Assembly (NCBI GenBank): GCA_965224195.1 | Contig: OZ245040.1 | Coordinates: 192,001-256,000 of the forward strand | Reading direction: 5' to 3' | Length of the DNA: 64,000 bases | Source of the DNA: Nitrosopumilus sp. | Lineage (GTDB): Archaea; Thermoproteota; Nitrososphaeria; Nitrososphaerales; Nitrosopumilaceae | Shown: one piece after another, positions 13,790-34,756 of the stretch | Layout of the letters: each line of letters begins with the position of its first letter | Numbering within the stretch: the stretch's first letter is position 1 | The notes under the pieces: model-generated | The model's database searches: none | Seen by the model: only the letters and a program-made list of their open reading frames with translations | Told to the model about the DNA's origin: nothing | Made by a program: the position numbers and the translations under genes

Positions 13790-14068
13790 TTGAATCAAAC
13801 AACATCCAAAGCGCTTACTGGATTCAAGTACATTTACCTAATTGCCTTTTTTACATTACTGGCAGGATTATTCCATCCACTTATCACTAACACTAGTTTT
13901 GATGGAGTGATTAGTGGAGTATTGATATTATTTATAGGTCTTGCCGGTGGGGTTTTACTATACAGAGCTGCAACATCTGAAAGTAAAAGAGTAATTTTTC
14001 TAGGAAGTGGGTTTACCTTAATGGCTATTTCATTATACTATATTTTTCAATTTACTGGAAGAGCTTAA
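13790..14068 (+). CDS. Small 3-TM membrane protein
   Basis: Three hydrophobic segments. Confidence 0.7.
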   Translation: MNQTTSKALTGFKYIYLIAFFTLLAGLFHPLITNTSFDGVISGVLILFIGLAGGVLLYRAATSESKRVIFLGSGFTLMAISLYYIFQFTGRA

Positions 14069-15537
14069 ACATCAAAATACAGATAAAATTCGTGTGGATG
14101 TGGTCTGATGGCTATCTCCCGTTGATCTCTTCTTTCTAATTCTATAATTTTATCAATTACATCATTTGTGAAAATTGTGTTAAGGTATTTTCTATCACTT
14201 TCTAATTCATCTAATGCTTCTCCAAGACTTTTTGGAAGAACACCAATTCCTCTTTTTGCTCTGTCAGATTTTGTCATCTTGAAGATATCGTCACGAACTT
14301 CAGGTCCCGGATCCATTTTCTTCTTCACTCCATCCATTCCTGCTGCAGTTACAGCTGCAAATACAAGATATGGGTTTGATGAAGGATCAGGTGCTCTAAA
14401 TTCAAGCCTCTTAAGATTAGCATAATTTTTCCCTTTGAGATGTTTTGGAACTCTGACTATTGCAGAACGGTTTCCAGAACTCCATGCAATGTATGCTGGA
14501 GCTTCATATCCTGGAACTAATCTGTGATATGAGTTAGTTGTAGGATTACAAATAGCAGATAATGATTTTGCATGATTAATGATACCGCCACAAAAGTATC
14601 GTCCAAGTTGGCTTAATTCAATTTCATCGTCTGCATCATAAAATGCATTTAGATTATCCTTCCATAAACTAACATTAACATGCATTCCAGAACCAGAATC
14701 CATTGCAATTGGTTTTGGCATCATTGTTGCAACTTTTCCATATTTTTGTGCAACATTTCTAATAACAAATTTGTATGATTGTGCAGCGTCAGCAGCATTT
14801 GTCATGCGATCATACTTGATATCAATTTCACATTGACCTGCTGTTGCTACTTCGTGATGGTGATTATCACATAAAATTCCAAAATTTTTATTGAGAATAT
14901 TTACACATTCATTTCTATATGGTGTAAGAGTATCTGCTGGAGTACTTGGGTAATATCCCTCTTGTAATCCCATAGGATAACCATTACCTGATTGATTCCA
15001 TGGAGCCTCTTTTGATTCAATAGAATATGATTGACCTTTGTAAGGAGTTAGAACATCCCAATGTACTTTATCAAATACAAAGAATTCAACTTCTGGACCC
15101 CATGTACTATAATCAAATCCTTGAGTTTTGATATATTCTTCAGCTTTTTGAGAAATTCCTCTTGGGTCTCTTGATAATCGTCCTCTATCTTCACCCCAAT
15201 AGACATCACATAGTAGTCTAGCAGTTTTATTTTCAGTCATCCATGGAATAATTGCAAATGTATTTGGATCAGGTTTTAAAAGTAAATCTGAATCATTAAT
15301 GCTGGCAAATCCAATAATAGATGAACCATCTAATTTTGGTAATCCATCTCTCATTTGTTCTGGAGTGAAGGTATTTGCTGAAATTGTAGTATGATGAAAA
15401 TGACCTGTAAGACCTGTAAATTGTAAATCTATAAACTGAATTTCTTCATGTTGGATTCTCGAAAAAACTTCGTCAGAGGAATATCCTATTGGAATTGCTT
15501 TACCGTGGCTGACTTTATATGGCAATTTATACTTCAA
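14065..15537 (-). CDS. glnA: Glutamine synthetase type I (copy 1)
   Basis: LDGSS, GPEVEFF, HHEVATAGQCEI, MPKP..SGSGMH, RLVPGYEAP, NRSAIVRVP, RLEFRAPD. Confidence 0.96.
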   Translation of the reverse strand: MKYKLPYKVSHGKAIPIGYSSDEVFSRIQHEEIQFIDLQFTGLTGHFHHTTISANTFTPEQMRDGLPKLDGSSIIGFASINDSDLLLKPDPNTFAIIPWMTENKTARLLCDVYWGEDRGRLSRDPRGISQKAEEYIKTQGFDYSTWGPEVEFFVFDKVHWDVLTPYKGQSYSIESKEAPWNQSGNGYPMGLQEGYYPSTPADTLTPYRNECVNILNKNFGILCDNHHHEVATAGQCEIDIKYDRMTNAADAAQSYKFVIRNVAQKYGKVATMMPKPIAMDSGSGMHVNVSLWKDNLNAFYDADDEIELSQLGRYFCGGIINHAKSLSAICNPTTNSYHRLVPGYEAPAYIAWSSGNRSAIVRVPKHLKGKNYANLKRLEFRAPDPSSNPYLVFAAVTAAGMDGVKKKMDPGPEVRDDIFKMTKSDRAKRGIGVLPKSLGEALDELESDRKYLNTIFTNDVIDKIIELERRDQREIAIRPHPHEFYLYFDV

Positions 15538-24288: not shown

Positions 24289-25188
24289 TTATTTAATTTC
24301 TATCTTTAAAAGATCTTTTGCAGTAATTACTAAATCATGAATTTCTTTAGCTTCTTTCAAATGTCCTTCTTCATCTTTGTATCTAGCTGAAAAATGTGTT
24401 AAAACTAAATTTTTTACTCTAGCATTTTTTCCTAATGTTGCTGCTTGTTTTGCAGTAGAATGACATGTATCTTGTGCTCTATCTTTTTCTTCTTCTAAAA
24501 ATGTTGAATCAAATACTAGATAATCACAATTCTCAAAAAATTTTTCTAATTCTATAGTTGGCATTGTATCTCCAGAAATTCCAATTTTTTTACCTGGACG
24601 TTTTTCTCCTAATACTTGATTTGGCTTTATTATCTTATTATTAATTGTGATATTCTGACCTTTTTGTAAATCACTCCACAGTTTTCCTTCAGGAATTCCT
24701 AATTGATTGGCTTTATCTAGATTAAATCGTCCAGGTTTATCTTTTTCTTCAAACAAATATGAGAAAGCAACTACTGAATGATTTGCTTTACATACGTAAA
24801 TAGAAAATTTTTCATTCTCAAACACTTTTCCTTCTTTGATTGTAGTAATTAAAACAGGGAATGATAATCTAAAATTTAACACTTTGATATTTGCTGCAAT
24901 GAATTCTTCAATCCCATTTGGTCCAAAAATTTCTAATGTTTCAGTTCTATTTTGCATTGACATAGTTTGTAACAATCCTAAAATTCCTACACAATGATCT
25001 CCATGCATATGTGTAACAAACAATTTCATTTTTTTATTCCAACCCAAACCTGATTTCATAAATGATATTTGAGTAGCTTCTCCGGCATCAAACATTAAAA
25101 TCTCACCATCTCTTTCTAAACAAATGCATGATAATCCTCTATTTTCAGTGGGTTGGGCAGCAGAAGTACCTAGGAATACAAGTTTCAT
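24289..25188 (-). CDS. rnz: Ribonuclease Z
   Basis: LGTSAAQP, THMHGDH, exosite GIPEG, SGDT, HST, THFSARY. Confidence 0.95.
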   Translation of the reverse strand: MKLVFLGTSAAQPTENRGLSCICLERDGEILMFDAGEATQISFMKSGLGWNKKMKLFVTHMHGDHCVGILGLLQTMSMQNRTETLEIFGPNGIEEFIAANIKVLNFRLSFPVLITTIKEGKVFENEKFSIYVCKANHSVVAFSYLFEEKDKPGRFNLDKANQLGIPEGKLWSDLQKGQNITINNKIIKPNQVLGEKRPGKKIGISGDTMPTIELEKFFENCDYLVFDSTFLEEEKDRAQDTCHSTAKQAATLGKNARVKNLVLTHFSARYKDEEGHLKEAKEIHDLVITAKDLLKIEIK

Positions 25189-26130
25189 TTTATCAGAATT
25201 GTTCTTGTCAAGCTTTTATGCTTATAGATATGATATTTTTTTAATCCACTTAATTTTGAGTTAAAATCCATTTCTTTTTTGTACATAATCGCAACTCTTT
25301 TTCGTTTAGGAAGCATTGAGAAAAATTTCTTCAATATTTCTTGAGGTTTTTCTGATGTTTTTGAGGCTGTTTCATATGGTAAATCAGTTACAATTCCATC
25401 AAATTTATCAGATATTTTTGATAATTCATGAAATTCTGAGTTCAAAATTTTTGAATGATAATTGTTCACTTTGAGATTTTTTTAGCAATTTCACACATTT
25501 TTCATCAAAATCCAATCCAATTCCATGAATTCCTATAGATTCTGCCTCAAGCAGCGTAGTACCTGTTCCACAAAATGGATCACAAATGGTCTCCCCTTTT
25601 TTCATTCCAATTAGATTAATCATTACTCTGGTTAGTTTCCAATCTAATCCATGAGGGTATTTCTTGATCTTTTTTGGCCTTATCTGTTCTTTGGATCGTT
25701 TTGAAAACCCAAAAAAGTTTTCATTATTTGTAAAAATCAGATATACTGTAATATCTGGATTTTCTAAATCCACTTTTGCATGAGAAAATTTTGATATCAT
25801 GTCTCCCATAGAACTCTCTAATTCTGGAATGTTGAATTGATTCGATGATAAATTAATCACTCTGCAAACAAAACTTTTTGCATTTTTTAAAACTCCAATA
25901 TTCTCTTCATCTAAAAATAATCCTGACATTTTTCGTAAAATTTGCCCTGAAGTTTTTACAAATGTAGCACGTTTTGCTATTTCATTTACATTTGTTTTAG
26001 ATTGAACAATTACTAAATTAGAAATTATTTTTATTTTAGAAAATCTATCATATATTTTTGCTATTACTGTAATTTCATCTGTTGCAAGTTCTAGATAATC
26101 TTTAGATAAAACAAAAAAACTTTCTGGCAT
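25185..26130 (-). pseudogene. THUMP-domain Trm11/TrmG10-like tRNA methyltransferase, frameshifted
   Basis: DPFCGTGT in ORF 25426-26130, DLPY and HKSLTR in ORF 25185-25469; break at A-runs near 25477-25502. Confidence 0.75.
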
Positions 26131-27050: not shown

Positions 27051-28793
27051 TTATTCTTCTTCGCCACTACCGCGACCAATATCCCCAATACCATATTTGT
27101 CAATAGCCTCATTTCTCTTATCTTCTAGCTTATCGATCTTTTCTTGTTCGCGTTTTTCATCTCCTTGGTATACTGTTCTAATTGGCCATGGAATTCTAAT
27201 ATCATATTTCTTAAATTCTTCGTACATGATCATCCTCATATCTGTTTTAGTTTTGAATTGTGCACCATAATTTCTGACATATACTAATAATATAAAATCT
27301 AATGCAGAATCATTAAAATTATTAAACCTTACAATTGGTTGATTAATATCAACATGAATATCTTTATCACAACCACAACTTGGTTGGTTATTTTTTAGGT
27401 ATGGACATCGAATTTGTCTAATTAGATGTCCACCCTTACCATCAACGACTTCATTCATTGCACGTTTCCCAATTTTTATAAGAATAGCTGAAACTTGTTT
27501 AGGATCATTAAGATATGAAACACCTACCTCAACAATAGCAGGTACCATCTTTATTCCCTGTGTGTAGTTGATTACCTGTGCACTGACTAATTGTCTTGTT
27601 GGAATTATTGCAATTGATTCGTTTAATGCATCTCGAATATAGGTAACTCTAGGCGTAATTTTGTGTACATATCCATTATAACCTGTATCAAGTTTTACAC
27701 GTTCACCTTCGACAAATATCTTATCTTTTCGAATCATAATATATGCAAAATAATTCTGCATAGTCTCTTGTAATGCCAATCCTATCCCAATTGCCATTCC
27801 TCCTGTAGCTGTAGCAAGTACAATCAAGTCTACTCCCCACCATGCAACAACTCCTAAAATTGTCGCAATAAAAATTCCTATTGGAAGAATTTGTTTTGCA
27901 GACTTAGGAATTCCCTCTTTTTTCTTTTTTGCATATCCTGCAGGACGAGAACTTGGAATTAGTGGTTCAAAGCTATTTGATCTTTTTTCCTCTCTCCATA
28001 CATCAATTGGAAATATTTCATCAGGTTTTGCACCTGGTTTTAACTTTCTACCCGATTGATTATTACCGGTAACACAGTTTTGATAATATTTGTCATATTT
28101 TGTACGTTCTGACTGTTTCCACTCTTCAAATGGTTTATCAACTAATTTTTCATATCCACCAATTGGATTTCCTTTTGTTGTACGAAATTGCTCCAATTGT
28201 AACATTCCTTCTTTTCTTTTGAGCATCTCTTTGAATTTTTCTTCATCTATCTCTTCTGGAGTGACTTTTGGTGGAACCCACTTGTACAATTTAGGGAATA
28301 GGTTATCTTTATCATCAACAAATCCTCTCATTTCAAACCAAGCATCAAAATCCTCTTTTTCTTGTTCACGTTTCTCACGTTTGGTAAGAGAAATTGGAAT
28401 AAGATGAGAAATCGTGTAACCAATTACCAAAATGTTGAAAGTATTGAGAATCTTTGCAAATACTTCTTGAGGAGATATCTCTTCATCTCCAACTATCGTC
28501 AAGTCTTCTCCTACCAAAATTCCATTTTGTATGTAAATATTGATTATCGTAATAAACACAATTGCAAAAACTGGAAGAACTGCTCTTCGTAGAAATCTTG
28601 AGGCATGTGGTCTTTGATAATAGAATTTCTTTGAACCTACCCAAGATGAAAATTTCTTATAACCAACAGTTATTCCAATCATCCCTACAATCATTATCAA
28701 AAATGTAATTTGAAGTGATTCAGATGATGCTAAAAGCTGTGAAACGGTTTCAAATTCCCCTGCAGAAATTTGTGATATCTCTTCCTCAGCCAT
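27051..28793 (-). CDS. MscS-family mechanosensitive channel with extra domains
   Basis: GIGLALQET..NYFA TM3, GERV beta domain, VGVSY, F.DSALDF, IRIPWP. Confidence 0.88.
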   Translation of the reverse strand: MAEEEISQISAGEFETVSQLLASSESLQITFLIMIVGMIGITVGYKKFSSWVGSKKFYYQRPHASRFLRRAVLPVFAIVFITIINIYIQNGILVGEDLTIVGDEEISPQEVFAKILNTFNILVIGYTISHLIPISLTKREKREQEKEDFDAWFEMRGFVDDKDNLFPKLYKWVPPKVTPEEIDEEKFKEMLKRKEGMLQLEQFRTTKGNPIGGYEKLVDKPFEEWKQSERTKYDKYYQNCVTGNNQSGRKLKPGAKPDEIFPIDVWREEKRSNSFEPLIPSSRPAGYAKKKKEGIPKSAKQILPIGIFIATILGVVAWWGVDLIVLATATGGMAIGIGLALQETMQNYFAYIMIRKDKIFVEGERVKLDTGYNGYVHKITPRVTYIRDALNESIAIIPTRQLVSAQVINYTQGIKMVPAIVEVGVSYLNDPKQVSAILIKIGKRAMNEVVDGKGGHLIRQIRCPYLKNNQPSCGCDKDIHVDINQPIVRFNNFNDSALDFILLVYVRNYGAQFKTKTDMRMIMYEEFKKYDIRIPWPIRTVYQGDEKREQEKIDKLEDKRNEAIDKYGIGDIGRGSGEEE

Positions 28794-28923
28794 ATTTAAC
28801 CACCATTCTAATCAAATTCATGTCCTAGAATACAAACGTTAAGACATATTATTATTAAATTCGAAAAATATTATGCGTAACTAGTATGCAACCTTTAACA
28901 AGGGTTTTCACATTATTTACAAA

Positions 28924-30270
28924 ATGACCTATCAAGAATCAGTATGGGATGATTCACCATCACTCAAGTCTTATACATTAGCAAATTTTCGTACTCTTCC
29001 ACAAATTCAAAACCTTGGTGAAGAAATACAATTTGAAATGGAAGTTGTAGGAAATGTCTTACCATTTAAAGCAAATAATTACGTTGTTGAACAATTAATT
29101 GATTGGAATAATATTCCAAATGATCCAATGTATGTTTTGACTTTTCCTCAAAAAGGAATGCTAAAACCGGAACATTACAAAAAAATGGAAACAACATTAA
29201 AAAATAATTCTGATAAAAAAGAAATAGCAAACATAGCAAATGAAATTCGTTTACAATTAAATCCACATCCAGCAGGACAAATAGAGCTTAATGTTCCAAC
29301 ATTAAAAGATGGAACTAAACTTTACGGAATGCAGCATAAATACAAAGAAACTTGTCTTTTCTTTCCTAGTCAAAGTCAAACTTGTCATGCTTATTGCAGT
29401 TTTTGTTTTAGATGGCCACAATTTGTTGGAATGGATGAAATGAAATTTGCTATGCAAGAAGGTGATCAACTAGTACAATACGTTACAGAACATCCTGAAA
29501 TCAGTGATGTACTTTTCACCGGCGGTGATCCAATGATTATGAAAGCAAAAGTATTTTCAAAATATATTGATACTATTATTGAATCAAAACCTCAAAATTT
29601 AAAAACGATTAGAATTGGAACAAAAGCTCTTTCTTATTGGCCTTACAAATTTTTGACTGATTCAGATTCTGAAGAAATGTTGGATGTATTTAGAAGAATA
29701 ACTGATAGTGGATTACATCTTGCATTTATGGGCCACTTTAATCATCTTAATGAATTATCTACAGAAGCGGTAAAATCTGCCATCAAAACAGTGAGAAAAA
29801 CTGGTGCAGAAATTCGAACCCAATCTCCTCTTTTAGCACACATTAATGATGATGCTGACATGTGGGCAAAAATGTGGACTAAACAAGTTCAACTTGGTTG
29901 TATACCATACTACATGTTTGTTGTAAGAGATACAGGTGCTCAACACTATTTTGGAGTTCCATTGGTTAAAGCATATGAGATTTTTAGTAAAGCATATTCT
30001 TCTGTTAGTGGATTAGCTAGAACTGTTCGTGGTCCTAGCATGTCTGCAACTCCAGGAAAAGTGCAAGTAGTAGGAACATCAAAACTAAATAATCAAAAAA
30101 TACTCGTTTTACGATTTTTACAAGGAAGAAACCCTAACTGGGTCGACCAACCATTCTTTGCAAAATATGATGAAAATGCTATCTGGTTAGATGATCTAAA
30201 ACCTGCATTTGAAGAAAAATTCTTCTTTGAAGACGAACTTGATGTTATCAAAGCATCAAAGATGAGTTAA
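28924..30270 (+). CDS. KamA-family radical SAM/PLP 2,3-aminomutase
   Basis: HKY, CHAYCSFCFR, DVLFTGGDP, RIGTK, HFNH, QSPLL..IND, PYYMF, PGK. Confidence 0.9.
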   Translation: MTYQESVWDDSPSLKSYTLANFRTLPQIQNLGEEIQFEMEVVGNVLPFKANNYVVEQLIDWNNIPNDPMYVLTFPQKGMLKPEHYKKMETTLKNNSDKKEIANIANEIRLQLNPHPAGQIELNVPTLKDGTKLYGMQHKYKETCLFFPSQSQTCHAYCSFCFRWPQFVGMDEMKFAMQEGDQLVQYVTEHPEISDVLFTGGDPMIMKAKVFSKYIDTIIESKPQNLKTIRIGTKALSYWPYKFLTDSDSEEMLDVFRRITDSGLHLAFMGHFNHLNELSTEAVKSAIKTVRKTGAEIRTQSPLLAHINDDADMWAKMWTKQVQLGCIPYYMFVVRDTGAQHYFGVPLVKAYEIFSKAYSSVSGLARTVRGPSMSATPGKVQVVGTSKLNNQKILVLRFLQGRNPNWVDQPFFAKYDENAIWLDDLKPAFEEKFFFEDELDVIKASKMS

Positions 30271-30359
30271 TTTCAACAAATTTTATAATTTACCTGACTA
30301 ATTTGACAATTCTAACTTACAAGATAACATTAGTAAACTAATTTAGAATCAATATCAAA

Positions 30360-31805
30360 TTGAATTCAGATCAAGTATTACAGACTATTCAAGACGAAAA
30401 TATATCGTTCATAGATTTTTGGTTTGTAGATATTTTTGGTGAACTCCATAATGTTGGAATGCCAAGCTATGCAATTGGCAAAAATAGTTTTGTAAATGGT
30501 CTTGAAAAATTAGATGCAAGTTCAATTGTTGGTTTTAAATCTGTAAATAACTCTGATATGATTTTAATGCCTGATCCAAAATCATTCAAAATTCTTCCTA
30601 ATGATTATGATCCAGGTAATAGAAAAAATGCAAGAATTTTTTGTGATCTTTATGATGGAAGTACAAGCAAGGAATCAAGATACACTAGAGATTCTAGAGG
30701 TATAGCTTTCAAAGCATCAGAGAAATTAAAAGAATTTGGATTAACTCATACTAATTGGGGTCCTGAGATAGAATTTTTTGTTTTTGATGCAATCAATGTT
30801 TATCCATCTCCGTATGCAGCAACTCATTTTGGAGGAGGTTCAGGTTATTCAATTGAATCCAAAGAATCCCCTTGGGCAAAAGGAAATATTAGTACTGCAA
30901 TTGATATCAAAGAAGGGTACTATCCATCACAGCCAAAAGATACTCTTAATGGTTTTAGGAAAGATGTTTGTGAAGATTTATACAATTATTTTGGAATAAA
31001 AATTGAAGCTGAGCATCATGAAGTTGCAACTTCTGGTCAATGTGAAATCAATTTAGTTTATGATGAAATGATTACTATGGCTGATAATGTTATTGCAGTT
31101 AAAAATTTAGTAAAAGTTAAAGCTAAGAGAAAAAATAAAGTTGCAACCTTTATGCCAAAACCAATTTTTGGCGATAATGCATCTGCTATGCATACACATC
31201 AAAGTCTATGGAATGAAAATAAAAATGAAATGTACGATCAAAATGATGATGTCGCACAAATGAGTCAAATTGGTAGATATTATGTTGGTGGAATTCTAAG
31301 TCATGCTTCAGCATTATGTGCGATATCAAATCCTACAACAAATTCATACAAACGTCTTGTTCCTGGATTTGAAGCACCAGTCAATGTTTGTTGGGGATTA
31401 GCAAATCGTTCTACAGCTATTAGAGTTCCAATGTATAATAGAAATCAAGAAAAAAGTAAGAGAATTGAATATCGTGTACCTGATCCAACTGCAAATATCT
31501 ATCTTTTAGAAGCTGCATTATTACTCGCAGGACTAGATGGAATTAAAAATAAAATCGATCCCGGTGATCCAGTTGAAGAAAATGTCTATAAACTTTCTAC
31601 AGAAAAGAAACGAGAATATAACATTGGATCTTTACCTGTATCTTTGAAAGGCGCATTAGATTCTTTGTCTAGTGATTCAAATTTCTTGATAGATGTTTTC
31701 ACAAAAGATTTTCTAGATGCATATTCTGAATTAAAATATAAAGAATATACTGCATTTGCACAAACCCCTACAGCCTGGGAAGTTTCAATGTATGCAGATG
31801 CATAA
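30360..31805 (+). CDS. glnA: Glutamine synthetase type I family (copy 2, divergent)
   Basis: LDASS, GPEIEFF, HHEVATSGQCEI, MPKPIFGDNASAMH, RLVPGFEAP, RIEYRVPD. Confidence 0.9.
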   Translation: MNSDQVLQTIQDENISFIDFWFVDIFGELHNVGMPSYAIGKNSFVNGLEKLDASSIVGFKSVNNSDMILMPDPKSFKILPNDYDPGNRKNARIFCDLYDGSTSKESRYTRDSRGIAFKASEKLKEFGLTHTNWGPEIEFFVFDAINVYPSPYAATHFGGGSGYSIESKESPWAKGNISTAIDIKEGYYPSQPKDTLNGFRKDVCEDLYNYFGIKIEAEHHEVATSGQCEINLVYDEMITMADNVIAVKNLVKVKAKRKNKVATFMPKPIFGDNASAMHTHQSLWNENKNEMYDQNDDVAQMSQIGRYYVGGILSHASALCAISNPTTNSYKRLVPGFEAPVNVCWGLANRSTAIRVPMYNRNQEKSKRIEYRVPDPTANIYLLEAALLLAGLDGIKNKIDPGDPVEENVYKLSTEKKREYNIGSLPVSLKGALDSLSSDSNFLIDVFTKDFLDAYSELKYKEYTAFAQTPTAWEVSMYADA

Positions 31806-31875: not shown

Positions 31876-32529
31876 ATGAAATTAGAACTAATGATTTTAT
31901 TTTTATTTCTTGTTCCTGGTATAGCTGGAATTGCTTATGGACATACCGTAGATGCTGTAGGTGAATATAGAATAGAAATTGGTTGGATGAACGAACCTGT
32001 GGTATCAGGAGAAACTAATGCAATAGAATTCTATGTTAGTCCACTAATAACTTGTCCAGAAATTTCTGAAGCATCCAAATGTGCAGAATCTCAAAAATTT
32101 CAGAATGGAATTTCAGATTTGAGAAAAACTGTTAAAATAAAATTAATTTACAAAGATGAAAACATTACACTTCCTTTATCACCTGATCATAATATCCCAG
32201 GAAAATATTATGCATTTGTAAATCCAACTGTTTCTGGATTTTACCAAGCAAATATTTTAGGAACAATTATTGACACTCCAATTAGTTTATCCATGCATCC
32301 TCCAAAAGTTGATGAACGTTCTTACATTGAATTCCCTGAACCTGCAGATATAACAATAACACAAATGATTGATGGTCATACTGCATTAATTGAAGATGTA
32401 AGTGATTTGAAAGACTCAGTATCTATTATTGAAGAAACAAAATCAAATAGTATTGGATATCTTGGAATGGGCATTGGAATTATTGGAATTGCAATTGCAA
32501 TAATTGCCTTAGTAAAATCAAAGAATTAA
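31876..32529 (+). CDS. Exported protein with C-terminal membrane anchor
   Basis: Signal peptide ending AYG|H, beta-rich domain, C-terminal TM. Confidence 0.7.
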   Translation: MKLELMILFLFLVPGIAGIAYGHTVDAVGEYRIEIGWMNEPVVSGETNAIEFYVSPLITCPEISEASKCAESQKFQNGISDLRKTVKIKLIYKDENITLPLSPDHNIPGKYYAFVNPTVSGFYQANILGTIIDTPISLSMHPPKVDERSYIEFPEPADITITQMIDGHTALIEDVSDLKDSVSIIEETKSNSIGYLGMGIGIIGIAIAIIALVKSKN

Positions 32530-33769: not shown

Positions 33770-34756
33770 TTATTTTTTTCTTTTAACTTTAAAAATACTA
33801 TAACCATATTTTTCTTCCATTTCGTTTGATGTAAATTTTGCAAATTCGTATTCTTTAAAGTTCTTTAAAATTTCATATAAATTAATTCCAATTATAACAC
33901 TATTTCTTGGGCAAAGTGAATTTATCTTAAAACATCTATTCACTGTAGGTCCAAAAATATCAGAAATATTTGAAGTAGTACTTTGAGCAACTTTTACCGA
34001 ACCATACGTTGCACTAATTTTATAATCTAATTCTGGCATATTTTCTGCTTTAAGTTGTTTTTTTAACTCGTCATGAGAATCAATCATTGATAAGCAGCAT
34101 TCTAAAATATTTTTCATTTCTATAGGATTATTTGGATCAACATTTGGAAATCTAAACATTAAAGCATCCCCGATATTTTTTACTACTTCACCATTATGAT
34201 TTTTCACAATTTTTGCCATAAAATTAAGAAAAATTTCATATAATTTTGTAATGCTTTCATCTGATAATTCACTTGAGATTTTGGTAGAATCTTTCATGTC
34301 AATAACTCCAACACAATCGTTTTGAGTGTGTTGAGAAAATTTTAATAAAATATCTTCTTGTTGTTTAATGACTTCTTCTTTTTCTTTAATTTCAAACAAT
34401 GATTCTTGTAATTTCTGTGCCATTGAATCAAAAGATGAAGATAGATGTCCTATTTCATCATGTGATTTTATGTTAGTTCTAACACTAAAATCTCCATGTG
34501 AAATTTTATTTGCTGCATCACTAAGCTTTGTGATTGGTTTAGAAAGACGTTTTGAAAGAAAATATGTTAGAATACTTAATCCTATCATCAGTGTTATACC
34601 AATCCATATGATGTTCTCTTGTAGTTCAAAAATTGGTATATTATCAAAATTTAAGAATAGAATAGTAGTAATTGAAATTGAAATTAAAGTTGCAGATAAA
34701 ACTAAGACCAGTAATTTTTTTTGTAAACTAAAAAATATTGTTTTCTTCATATTCAT
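33770..34756 (-). CDS. Membrane HAMP / class III adenylate cyclase
   Basis: 2 TM, HAMP (PITKL..DEIGHL..FDSM), GVIDMKDST, KNIGDALM, DIFGPTVN. Confidence 0.88.
   Translation of the reverse strand: MNMKKTIFFSLQKKLLVLVLSATLISISITTILFLNFDNIPIFELQENIIWIGITLMIGLSILTYFLSKRLSKPITKLSDAANKISHGDFSVRTNIKSHDEIGHLSSSFDSMAQKLQESLFEIKEKEEVIKQQEDILLKFSQHTQNDCVGVIDMKDSTKISSELSDESITKLYEIFLNFMAKIVKNHNGEVVKNIGDALMFRFPNVDPNNPIEMKNILECCLSMIDSHDELKKQLKAENMPELDYKISATYGSVKVAQSTTSNISDIFGPTVNRCFKINSLCPRNSVIIGINLYEILKNFKEYEFAKFTSNEMEEKYGYSIFKVKRKK

Follow-up and report, generated by a model that had tools for sequence, protein, structure and literature searches.

A KamA-family aminomutase gene paired with an MscS channel gene in Nitrosopumilus: a candidate beta-glutamate synthesis-and-release pair with an accessory glutamine synthetase

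A 64,000-nucleotide stretch of the genome of a Nitrosopumilus sp. (GCA_965224195.1, contig OZ245040.1, positions 192,001 to 256,000 of the forward strand; here called the window, with coordinates counted from its first letter) carries the gene of a KamA-family radical S-adenosylmethionine (SAM)/pyridoxal phosphate (PLP) aminomutase (28924..30270, + strand, 448 amino acids (AA)). It is flanked on one side by the gene of an MscS-family mechanosensitive channel (27051..28793, − strand, 580 AA) and on the other by that of a second glutamine synthetase (GS2; 30360..31805, + strand, 481 AA). On its sequence the aminomutase is best read as a new type of glutamate 2,3-aminomutase, converting L-glutamate to beta-glutamate, and it is fairly probable that enzyme and channel form an osmolyte synthesis-and-release pair with beta-glutamate as the solute. 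The conserved core unit is the channel gene plus the aminomutase gene, not all three genes, because GS2 was not found in 36 of 144 aminomutase-positive genomes; GS2 is an accessory gene, dependent on the aminomutase.

To judge by its residues and predicted structure, the aminomutase retains the full make-up of a lysine 2,3-aminomutase (LAM)-type enzyme, with its radical-SAM cysteines and PLP lysine as well as the LAM fold. The CxxxCxxC cysteines (C154, C158 and C161), R163 and K379 are invariant in alignments of 50 and of 76 sequences. The motif aligns to the cluster cysteines of KamA/AblA of Clostridium subterminale (2A5H), the first of them lying at 154 as against 125 in 2A5H, and the Arg after the third Cys, R163, is what we take to be the alpha-carboxylate arginine of LAM. 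K379 was assigned as the PLP lysine through its GK motif, the HMMER alignment to 2A5H ending before that residue. An AlphaFold model built on the 50-sequence alignment (pLDDT 90.8) had 2A5H as its top Foldseek match (E=9e-18; template-modelling (TM) scores 0.61/0.67; ~396 columns); no other match spanned nearly the whole length of the model, and the next radical-SAM folds reached ~0.35. The two enzymes differ in that their identity is ~20%, the N-terminus of the window protein is ~30 residues longer, and it has neither the C-terminal zinc-site cysteines nor a match to the LAM_C Pfam family. There is no cysteine beyond C326, in agreement with an earlier reading made from the sequence alone (the sequence-only reading), which had seen no Cys-rich zinc site.

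In LAM the epsilon-ammonium group of lysine is presumably held by Asp293 and Asp330. Both HMMER alignments to 2A5H (single-sequence and profile) place R335 opposite Asp293, and this residue is Arg in 76/76 aligned homologues; the Asp330 position, found by its spacing from the PLP lysine, is S372, which is Ser in 72/76. Two longer relatives (P0200 and P0222; ~530–610 AA, 32–33% identical) also have Arg at the Asp293 position. An Arg at a side-chain-binding position argues for a substrate with a carboxylate side chain, of which glutamate would be the obvious one because the product of a 2,3-shift on aspartate is again aspartate. In the glutamate enzyme of Clostridioides difficile (Eam), Lys and Asn reportedly replace both aspartates, a finding said to be that of Ruzicka & Frey in 2007. 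The window enzyme would share with Eam its proposed reaction and a basic residue in place of Asp293 (Arg here, reportedly Lys in Eam), whereas it has Ser where Eam reportedly has Asn, and it comes from a different lineage.

None of the curated subfamily models accommodates the protein. It scored 122.4 bits against TIGR00238 (KamA family; cut-off 199.2), 105.6 against TIGR03820 (lysine 2,3-aminomutase, AblA; 525.4), 99 against the EpmB model (369), 94 against the arginine aminomutase model (600) and 80.8 against TIGR04368 (Eam; 650), the last being the weakest of the KamA subfamily scores. Among 16 relatives scanned (28–64% identical), 15 matched TIGR00238, all below its cut-off and, like the window protein, below those of the other curated KamA models, and one (P0212) matched no family. 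The label "new type" sets the enzyme apart from the C. difficile type by the TIGR04368 profile score, and may set it apart from the methanogen and IdnL4 enzymes by comparison of their descriptions. The Methanococcus maripaludis enzyme is said to carry an N-terminal extension of ~160 residues, which is missing from the window protein, as the cluster positions given above indicate. Going by the title of Tunckanat et al. 2022, it is an archaeal radical-SAM aminomutase that makes beta-glutamate for salt tolerance, as is proposed here. Among the listed matches to the long relative P0222 there were no methanogen names, the named entries being bacterial. IdnL4, from incednine-type macrolactam clusters, is likewise a radical-SAM enzyme, genetically assigned as a glutamate 2,3-aminomutase, but it provides a polyketide starter unit and not an osmolyte (PMC11284099).

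A few observations on the wider family may be recorded here. An ESM Atlas search with the aminomutase returned clusters carrying the automatic names "KamA / lysine 2,3-aminomutase". In one relative (P0128, 882 AA) a lysine/histamine N-monooxygenase-like domain is naturally fused to a KamA-like domain of the same family, 44% identical, which suggests a secondary-metabolism role for some aminomutase relatives. The aminomutase match carries one in-frame TAG in both sampled genomes of genus g5 (G020:C1:1298276-1299613 and G270:C1:1578593-1579930) and an in-frame TAA in G265; these three could be pseudogenes, sequencing errors or cases of read-through.

The gene order agrees with the open reading frame (ORF) coordinates: as the sequence-only reading had described, the KamA-like gene is followed after 89 bp by GS2, and both are divergent from mscS. 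The 130-bp divergent promoter region between the channel and aminomutase genes (28794..28923) contains a conserved TTTAACAA (28894-28901) that lies 30 nt ahead of the aminomutase ATG, and the block reads AA..TTTAACAA..GT when 14 such regions from Nitrosopumilaceae are aligned. It probably serves as the TATA box for an aminomutase mRNA with a short leader or none. The genome (2.07 Mb; completeness 99.85%) has one KamA-family gene, that of the window. The absence of an adjacent AblB acetyltransferase or EF-P ligase, noticed earlier, was borne out, there being no EF-P ligase or GNAT gene adjoining the locus and no AblB (TIGR03827) anywhere in the genome. A whole-genome search yielded no canonical glutamate 2,3-aminomutase (TIGR04368) above cut-off, and no ectoine synthase above cut-off was found in the genome.

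The 580-AA channel is, by its sequence features, a divergent form of MscS. Two strong N-terminal hydrophobic helices are followed by a highly charged insert of 165 residues (136–300; 37 K/R and 31 D/E), by two further helices, and by the beta domain and C-terminal domain of MscS, the MscS core occupying residues ~300–540. Pfam families PF00924 (30.3 bits, cut-off 20.2) and PF21082 (26.5 bits, cut-off 21) were matched and the Pfam model of the MscS transmembrane helices was not; alignment to residues 72–208 of E. coli MscS is weak (E ~1e-5).

A pattern scan of a species-level genome collection returned at least 591 aminomutase loci, the best 80 of which (21 Nitrosopumilaceae and 59 others) were analysed. 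The MscS gene adjoins the aminomutase gene in 20/20 of the Nitrosopumilaceae loci with upstream DNA. In 19 of them the two genes diverge, and in one (L012) they share a strand; in another (L005) an aminotransferase gene lies between them. Co-occurrence was tallied over 301 genomes spread evenly over the class, 181 of them Nitrosopumilaceae and 120 from 14 other families; three unpublished genomes are counted in, G231 and G283 (all three genes present) and G132 (aminomutase-negative), and dropping them would shift each count by at most 2. The aminomutase was present in 144/181 genomes of the family, including 66/67 of this genus, and in 0/120 of the other families. A channel orthologue (E<=1e-80) was found in 124/144 aminomutase-positive and 0/37 aminomutase-negative genomes of the family, and in 0/120 of the others. 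For GS2 (E<=1e-160) the corresponding figures were 108/144, 0/37 and 0/120. Co-occurrence holds in one direction: channel and GS2 are confined to aminomutase-positive genomes, but neither accompanies the aminomutase in all of them. Of the three-gene synthesis-and-release module first put forward, the tie between aminomutase and MscS stands, and the place of GS2 in the core does not.

A precedent for such a pairing of valve and solute synthesis exists in the group. The available text of PMC12949516, citing Widderich et al. 2016, describes an ectABCD-mscS cluster in N. maritimus, that is, osmolyte synthesis genes linked to mscS in the same archaeal group, and reports this ectoine-linked mscS as salt-induced. 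The solute and the enzymes are different there, and the window channel gene is divergent rather than in an operon and encodes a distinct 580-AA form. The aminomutase pair is also far more widespread, ectoine genes being found in "only few" ammonia-oxidising archaea (AOA; PMC11428151) as against the presence of the aminomutase in nearly every genome of this genus.

Orthologues 58–66% identical to the window aminomutase occur, among the best 80 loci, in Bacteroidota, Ignavibacteriota, Chloroflexota, Balneolota, Nitrospirota, Pseudomonadota and one Methanococcoides metagenome-assembled genome (MAG). In a FastTree phylogeny the archaeal aminomutases formed one clade (support 98) nested in a bacterial radiation. 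With a weak backbone and a root placed on distant outgroups, this tree, taken with the confinement of the gene to one family, agrees with a single acquisition. A contig labelled Candidatus Peribacteria (L023) carries a KamA-like gene 69% identical to that of the window, level with distant Nitrosopumilaceae and split into two ORFs; it represents either a recent transfer or a mis-binned archaeal contig.

The bacterial orthologues have informative gene contexts. An Rfam search of 25 of the 59 non-Nitrosopumilaceae loci (9 Chloroflexota and 16 others) located a cyclic di-AMP (c-di-AMP) riboswitch (RF00379, 60–97 bits) directly upstream of the aminomutase orthologue, on the same strand, in 8/9 Chloroflexota loci and in 0/16 of the other bacterial loci. 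These riboswitch-linked orthologues are 58–63% identical to the window enzyme. According to the available text of PMC9337991, c-di-AMP and Na+ riboswitches control osmoprotectant genes, ablA and eam among them. Locus L056 (4465-4859) has two c-di-AMP riboswitches back to back, one facing the KamA-like gene and the other a divergent class-III aminotransferase gene. Genes immediately next to other orthologues include those of an MscS channel (L041), of a Na+/H+ exchanger and a P-type ATPase (L040), of CLC channels (L043, L051) and of inositol-1-phosphate synthase (L068), which speak for a role in ion or solute homeostasis. Most often the neighbour is a class I/II aminotransferase of ~435 AA, which lies within 4.5 kb in 15/59 loci and is immediate in 11/59 (L030, L035, L038, L044, L048, L057, L060, L070, L074, L075 and L077). 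It recurs in Bacteroidota and Ignavibacteriota, and it is this type of gene that separates channel and aminomutase in the archaeal locus L005 (4528-5886; a Nitrosopumilus MAG). It matches aspartate aminotransferases best, at a score under the cut-off and with no equivalog match, and it may supply or balance glutamate.

The proposed product is abundant in a member of the group. In the available text of Heal et al., 2021 (PMC8269262), beta-glutamic acid is the most abundant identified metabolite of N. maritimus SCM1, at 730 mM, and it rises with ocean depth; that text does not name the gene. According to a 2024 paper by Bayer et al. (PMC11428151), ectoine, which only a few species can make, is the sole osmolyte so far identified for marine AOA. 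The osmoprotection genes given in the available text of a 2026 genomic survey of Nitrosarchaeum and Nitrosopumilus are those for ectoine, spermidine and BetA, the aminomutase locus not being among them (PMC12949516). No paper assigning a beta-glutamate gene in Nitrosopumilus, Thaumarchaeota or AOA was found in the literature searched, beyond which others may exist. The suggestion of the sequence-only reading that the enzyme is of the glutamate type rather than the lysine type is thus strengthened by the Arg in place of Asp293, the conserved pairing with MscS, the c-di-AMP riboswitches of bacterial orthologues and the very large beta-glutamate pool of N. maritimus.

From the identities, residues, predicted fold, synteny, co-occurrence and riboswitch control of orthologues described above we infer the substrate and product of the enzyme, the cargo of the channel and the substrate of GS2, in the following scheme. 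The aminomutase would convert L-glutamate to beta-glutamate, a non-metabolised anionic solute which Nitrosopumilus would accumulate to very high concentration. The divergent MscS-family channel would act as a safety valve, dumping the beta-glutamate pool on osmotic down-shock. GS2 would be an accessory enzyme, useful only given the aminomutase; at its most specific, the scheme would have GS2 amidate beta-glutamate to the zwitterionic beta-glutamine at higher salinity, and otherwise GS2 may keep nitrogen assimilation running in a cytoplasm filled with beta-glutamate.

GS2 is an intact type I glutamine synthetase paralogue with a TTG start. It scores 510.9 bits against TIGR00653 (cut-off 429.15), contains PF03951 and PF00120, and keeps the metal-binding and catalytic motifs (E-x-E, HHEV..GQ.E, MHTHQS, NRS and E.R). 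The genome has exactly two glutamine synthetase genes, both inside the window, the other (GS1; 14065..15537, − strand) lying beside a GINS gene and a thermosome gene. The description "divergent" given earlier to both enzymes of the locus fits the aminomutase and applies to GS2 only moderately, GS2 being 44% identical to GS1 and passing the GlnA equivalog cut-off. In an IQ-TREE phylogeny 11 GS2 sequences formed a clade (support 100/100) outside the clade of every sampled Nitrososphaeria GS1-type gene, so GS2 is no recent duplicate; the GS1 clade tracks taxonomy. Twenty positions are fixed differently in GS2, among them A276, which makes the loop DNASAMH where 21/21 other sequences have Gly (DN(G/A)SGMH). 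In Salmonella numbering the loop N264-G265-S-G267 presumably contacts the substrate amino group, and the A276 change would be a fitting place for a substrate shift, of which it is only a hint.

A division into an I-alpha-like GS1 and an I-beta-like GS2, based on the H-x-H motif, was considered and rejected, both proteins matching the solved glutamine synthetase 3NG0 best (387 and 362 bits). GS1 of the sampled Nitrosopumilaceae (f1) and of families f2 and f3 reads MHVNVS or similar, with Asn for the second His of M-H-x-H; this His is kept in GS2, in bacterial glutamine synthetases and in the GS1-type genes of deeper families (L100, L101, L102). The AT-rich spacer between aminomutase and GS2 (30271..30359, 89 bp) holds a TATA-like TTTTATAA ~70 nt before the GS2 start, at which GS2 may have a promoter of its own. 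Short contigs of seawater metatranscriptome X1, the one run recorded as RNA, are 90–97% alike and touch all three genes; they come from relatives, contigs cannot show transcription, strand or co-transcription, and no weight was given to them.

GS2 directly follows the aminomutase in 11/20 assessable Nitrosopumilaceae loci and is missing from 9, including those of Nitrosopelagicus and two marine group I single-cell genomes. The 108 copies in the co-occurrence sample divide into 88 within 5 kb of the aminomutase, 9 on the same contig at 149 kb–1.65 Mb (two of them fragments) and 11 on other contigs, and a full-length GS2 far from the aminomutase is kept in at least 7 genomes. The asymmetry is plain: GS2 was never found without the aminomutase, and the aminomutase often without GS2. 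The confinement of even unlinked GS2 genes to aminomutase-positive genomes fits dependence on the product of the aminomutase, and the distribution is as expected of an accessory enzyme acting on, or compensating for, that product. After GS2 (31876-32529, + strand) comes the gene of a 217-AA protein that has hydrophobic ends and matches no Pfam family; in loci without GS2 (L004, L005, L006) this gene directly follows the aminomutase, as if GS2 had been cleanly inserted or deleted.

What GS2 acts on is a matter on which the evidence is divided. It falls only a little short of an even chance that GS2 is an ordinary ammonia-assimilating isoenzyme using alpha-glutamate and making no beta-glutamine, either co-acquired or of help only under drainage of the glutamate pool or inhibition of GS1 by beta-glutamate. 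Its equivalog score and intact motifs are those of such an enzyme; no sequence signature for beta-glutamate use is known; the gene is dispensable in the 36 genomes noted above and pseudogenised in a few; and glutamine is undetectable in N. adriaticus cells (PMC11428151), the coverage of the beta isomer by the method being uncertain. An isoenzyme of this kind accords less well with the strict confinement of GS2 to genomes having the aminomutase, the retention of distant full-length copies and the clade-specific substrate loop. The more specific proposal, that GS2 forms beta-glutamine by amidating beta-glutamate, is doubtful: neither a sequence feature nor a metabolite datum was found for it, the DNASAMH loop being the sole sequence clue. 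The nearest parallel, in the available text of PMC1224877, is Methanohalophilus portucalensis, whose type I glutamine synthetase is proposed to make beta-glutamine from beta-glutamate. That enzyme is the general glutamine synthetase of the organism, with unusual kinetics, whereas the window case would employ a dedicated paralogue, and the two are likened by function, with no sequence determinant known. Unlikely as a whole is the fullest form of the proposal, a three-gene module from bacteria gained by the Nitrosopumilaceae ancestor, in which the aminomutase would provide beta-glutamate, GS2 would convert part of that pool to the beta-glutamine zwitterion at higher salinity, MscS would be tuned to release both, and osmoadaptation would depend mainly on the whole and not on ectoine.

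Several points weigh against the reading of aminomutase and channel as a beta-glutamate synthesis-and-release pair. Radical-SAM aminomutases are oxygen-sensitive, yet these archaea are aerobic, and MscS channels are not solute-specific. The TIGR04368 score is the lowest among the KamA subfamilies, so that the same function would mean a separate origin or very far divergence. The channel and aminomutase genes are divergent and do not form one operon, and a channel orthologue was not found in 20/144 aminomutase-positive genomes, including all 13 of genus g2. The genomes sampled are related, not independent, and the aminomutase-negative ones cluster in few genera, so co-absences may represent few events. 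GS2, besides being missing from a quarter of the aminomutase-positive genomes, decays in some, being in three pieces in L009, interrupted by an in-frame TGA in G056 and fragmentary in G105 and G153; the undetectable glutamine of N. adriaticus belongs here also. Finally, the available text of PMC8269262 gives beta-glutamate as measured in one strain only, N. maritimus SCM1, not matched by name to a gene-bearing genome, and a glutaconyl-CoA route to beta-glutamate has been proposed for methanogens.

The last of these leads to a quite unlikely alternative, that the KamA-like enzyme acts on another substrate (a different acidic amino acid or a biosynthetic intermediate) and that beta-glutamate has another origin, for example the amination of glutaconyl-CoA. 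Such a role would suit a family that fits no curated equivalog and has relatives in secondary-metabolism-like contexts, of which the P0128 fusion is an example. The invariant Arg argues instead for a carboxylate side chain with glutamate as the obvious candidate, the gene contexts (MscS, c-di-AMP riboswitch, ion transporters) are those of osmoregulation, and methanogens are said, by the title of Tunckanat et al. 2022, to use a glutamate 2,3-aminomutase. That the enzyme is a lysine 2,3-aminomutase, as the fold match to 2A5H and the source annotations ("lysine 2,3-aminomutase" or "KamA family") would have it, is very improbable in view of the universal Arg for Asp293, the Ser at the Asp330 position, a TIGR03820 score far below cut-off, a genome without AblB and a protein without zinc-site cysteines. 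The gamma-glutamylation of beta-lysine, offered earlier as an alternative for the locus, is ruled out because the aminomutase has neither of the lysine-binding aspartates.

The window has a GC content of ~31%, and close homologues of its genes carry the name Nitrosopumilus. Elsewhere in it, two overlapping ORFs on the − strand (25426-26130, 234 AA, and 25185-25469, 94 AA) resemble a single RNA/DNA methyltransferase gene that a frameshift has split in two; in the 234-AA ORF the match to the Pfam methyltransferase family UPF0020 runs to the C-terminus and breaks off there at position 70 of the 197 in the profile. A cyclic-nucleotide signalling gene (33770-34756, − strand) lies two genes downstream of GS2, specifying a membrane protein with HAMP and adenylate/guanylate cyclase catalytic domains.

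The present analysis adds the class-wide co-occurrence counts, the confinement of unlinked GS2 to aminomutase-positive genomes and the Chloroflexota riboswitch tally. The cells of marine ammonia-oxidising archaea rank with the most numerous in the ocean. Assignment of the gene would provide a metagenome marker for beta-glutamate production, and it would correct the database-wide label "lysine 2,3-aminomutase" on a family with at least 591 loci among the species-level genomes scanned. Biocatalysis, too, would have an interest in such an aminomutase that works in an aerobe (preprint 10.1101/2025.11.21.689712). The three-gene module, if true, would be the main osmoadaptation system of the most abundant archaea of the ocean and a large source of beta-amino acids in seawater.

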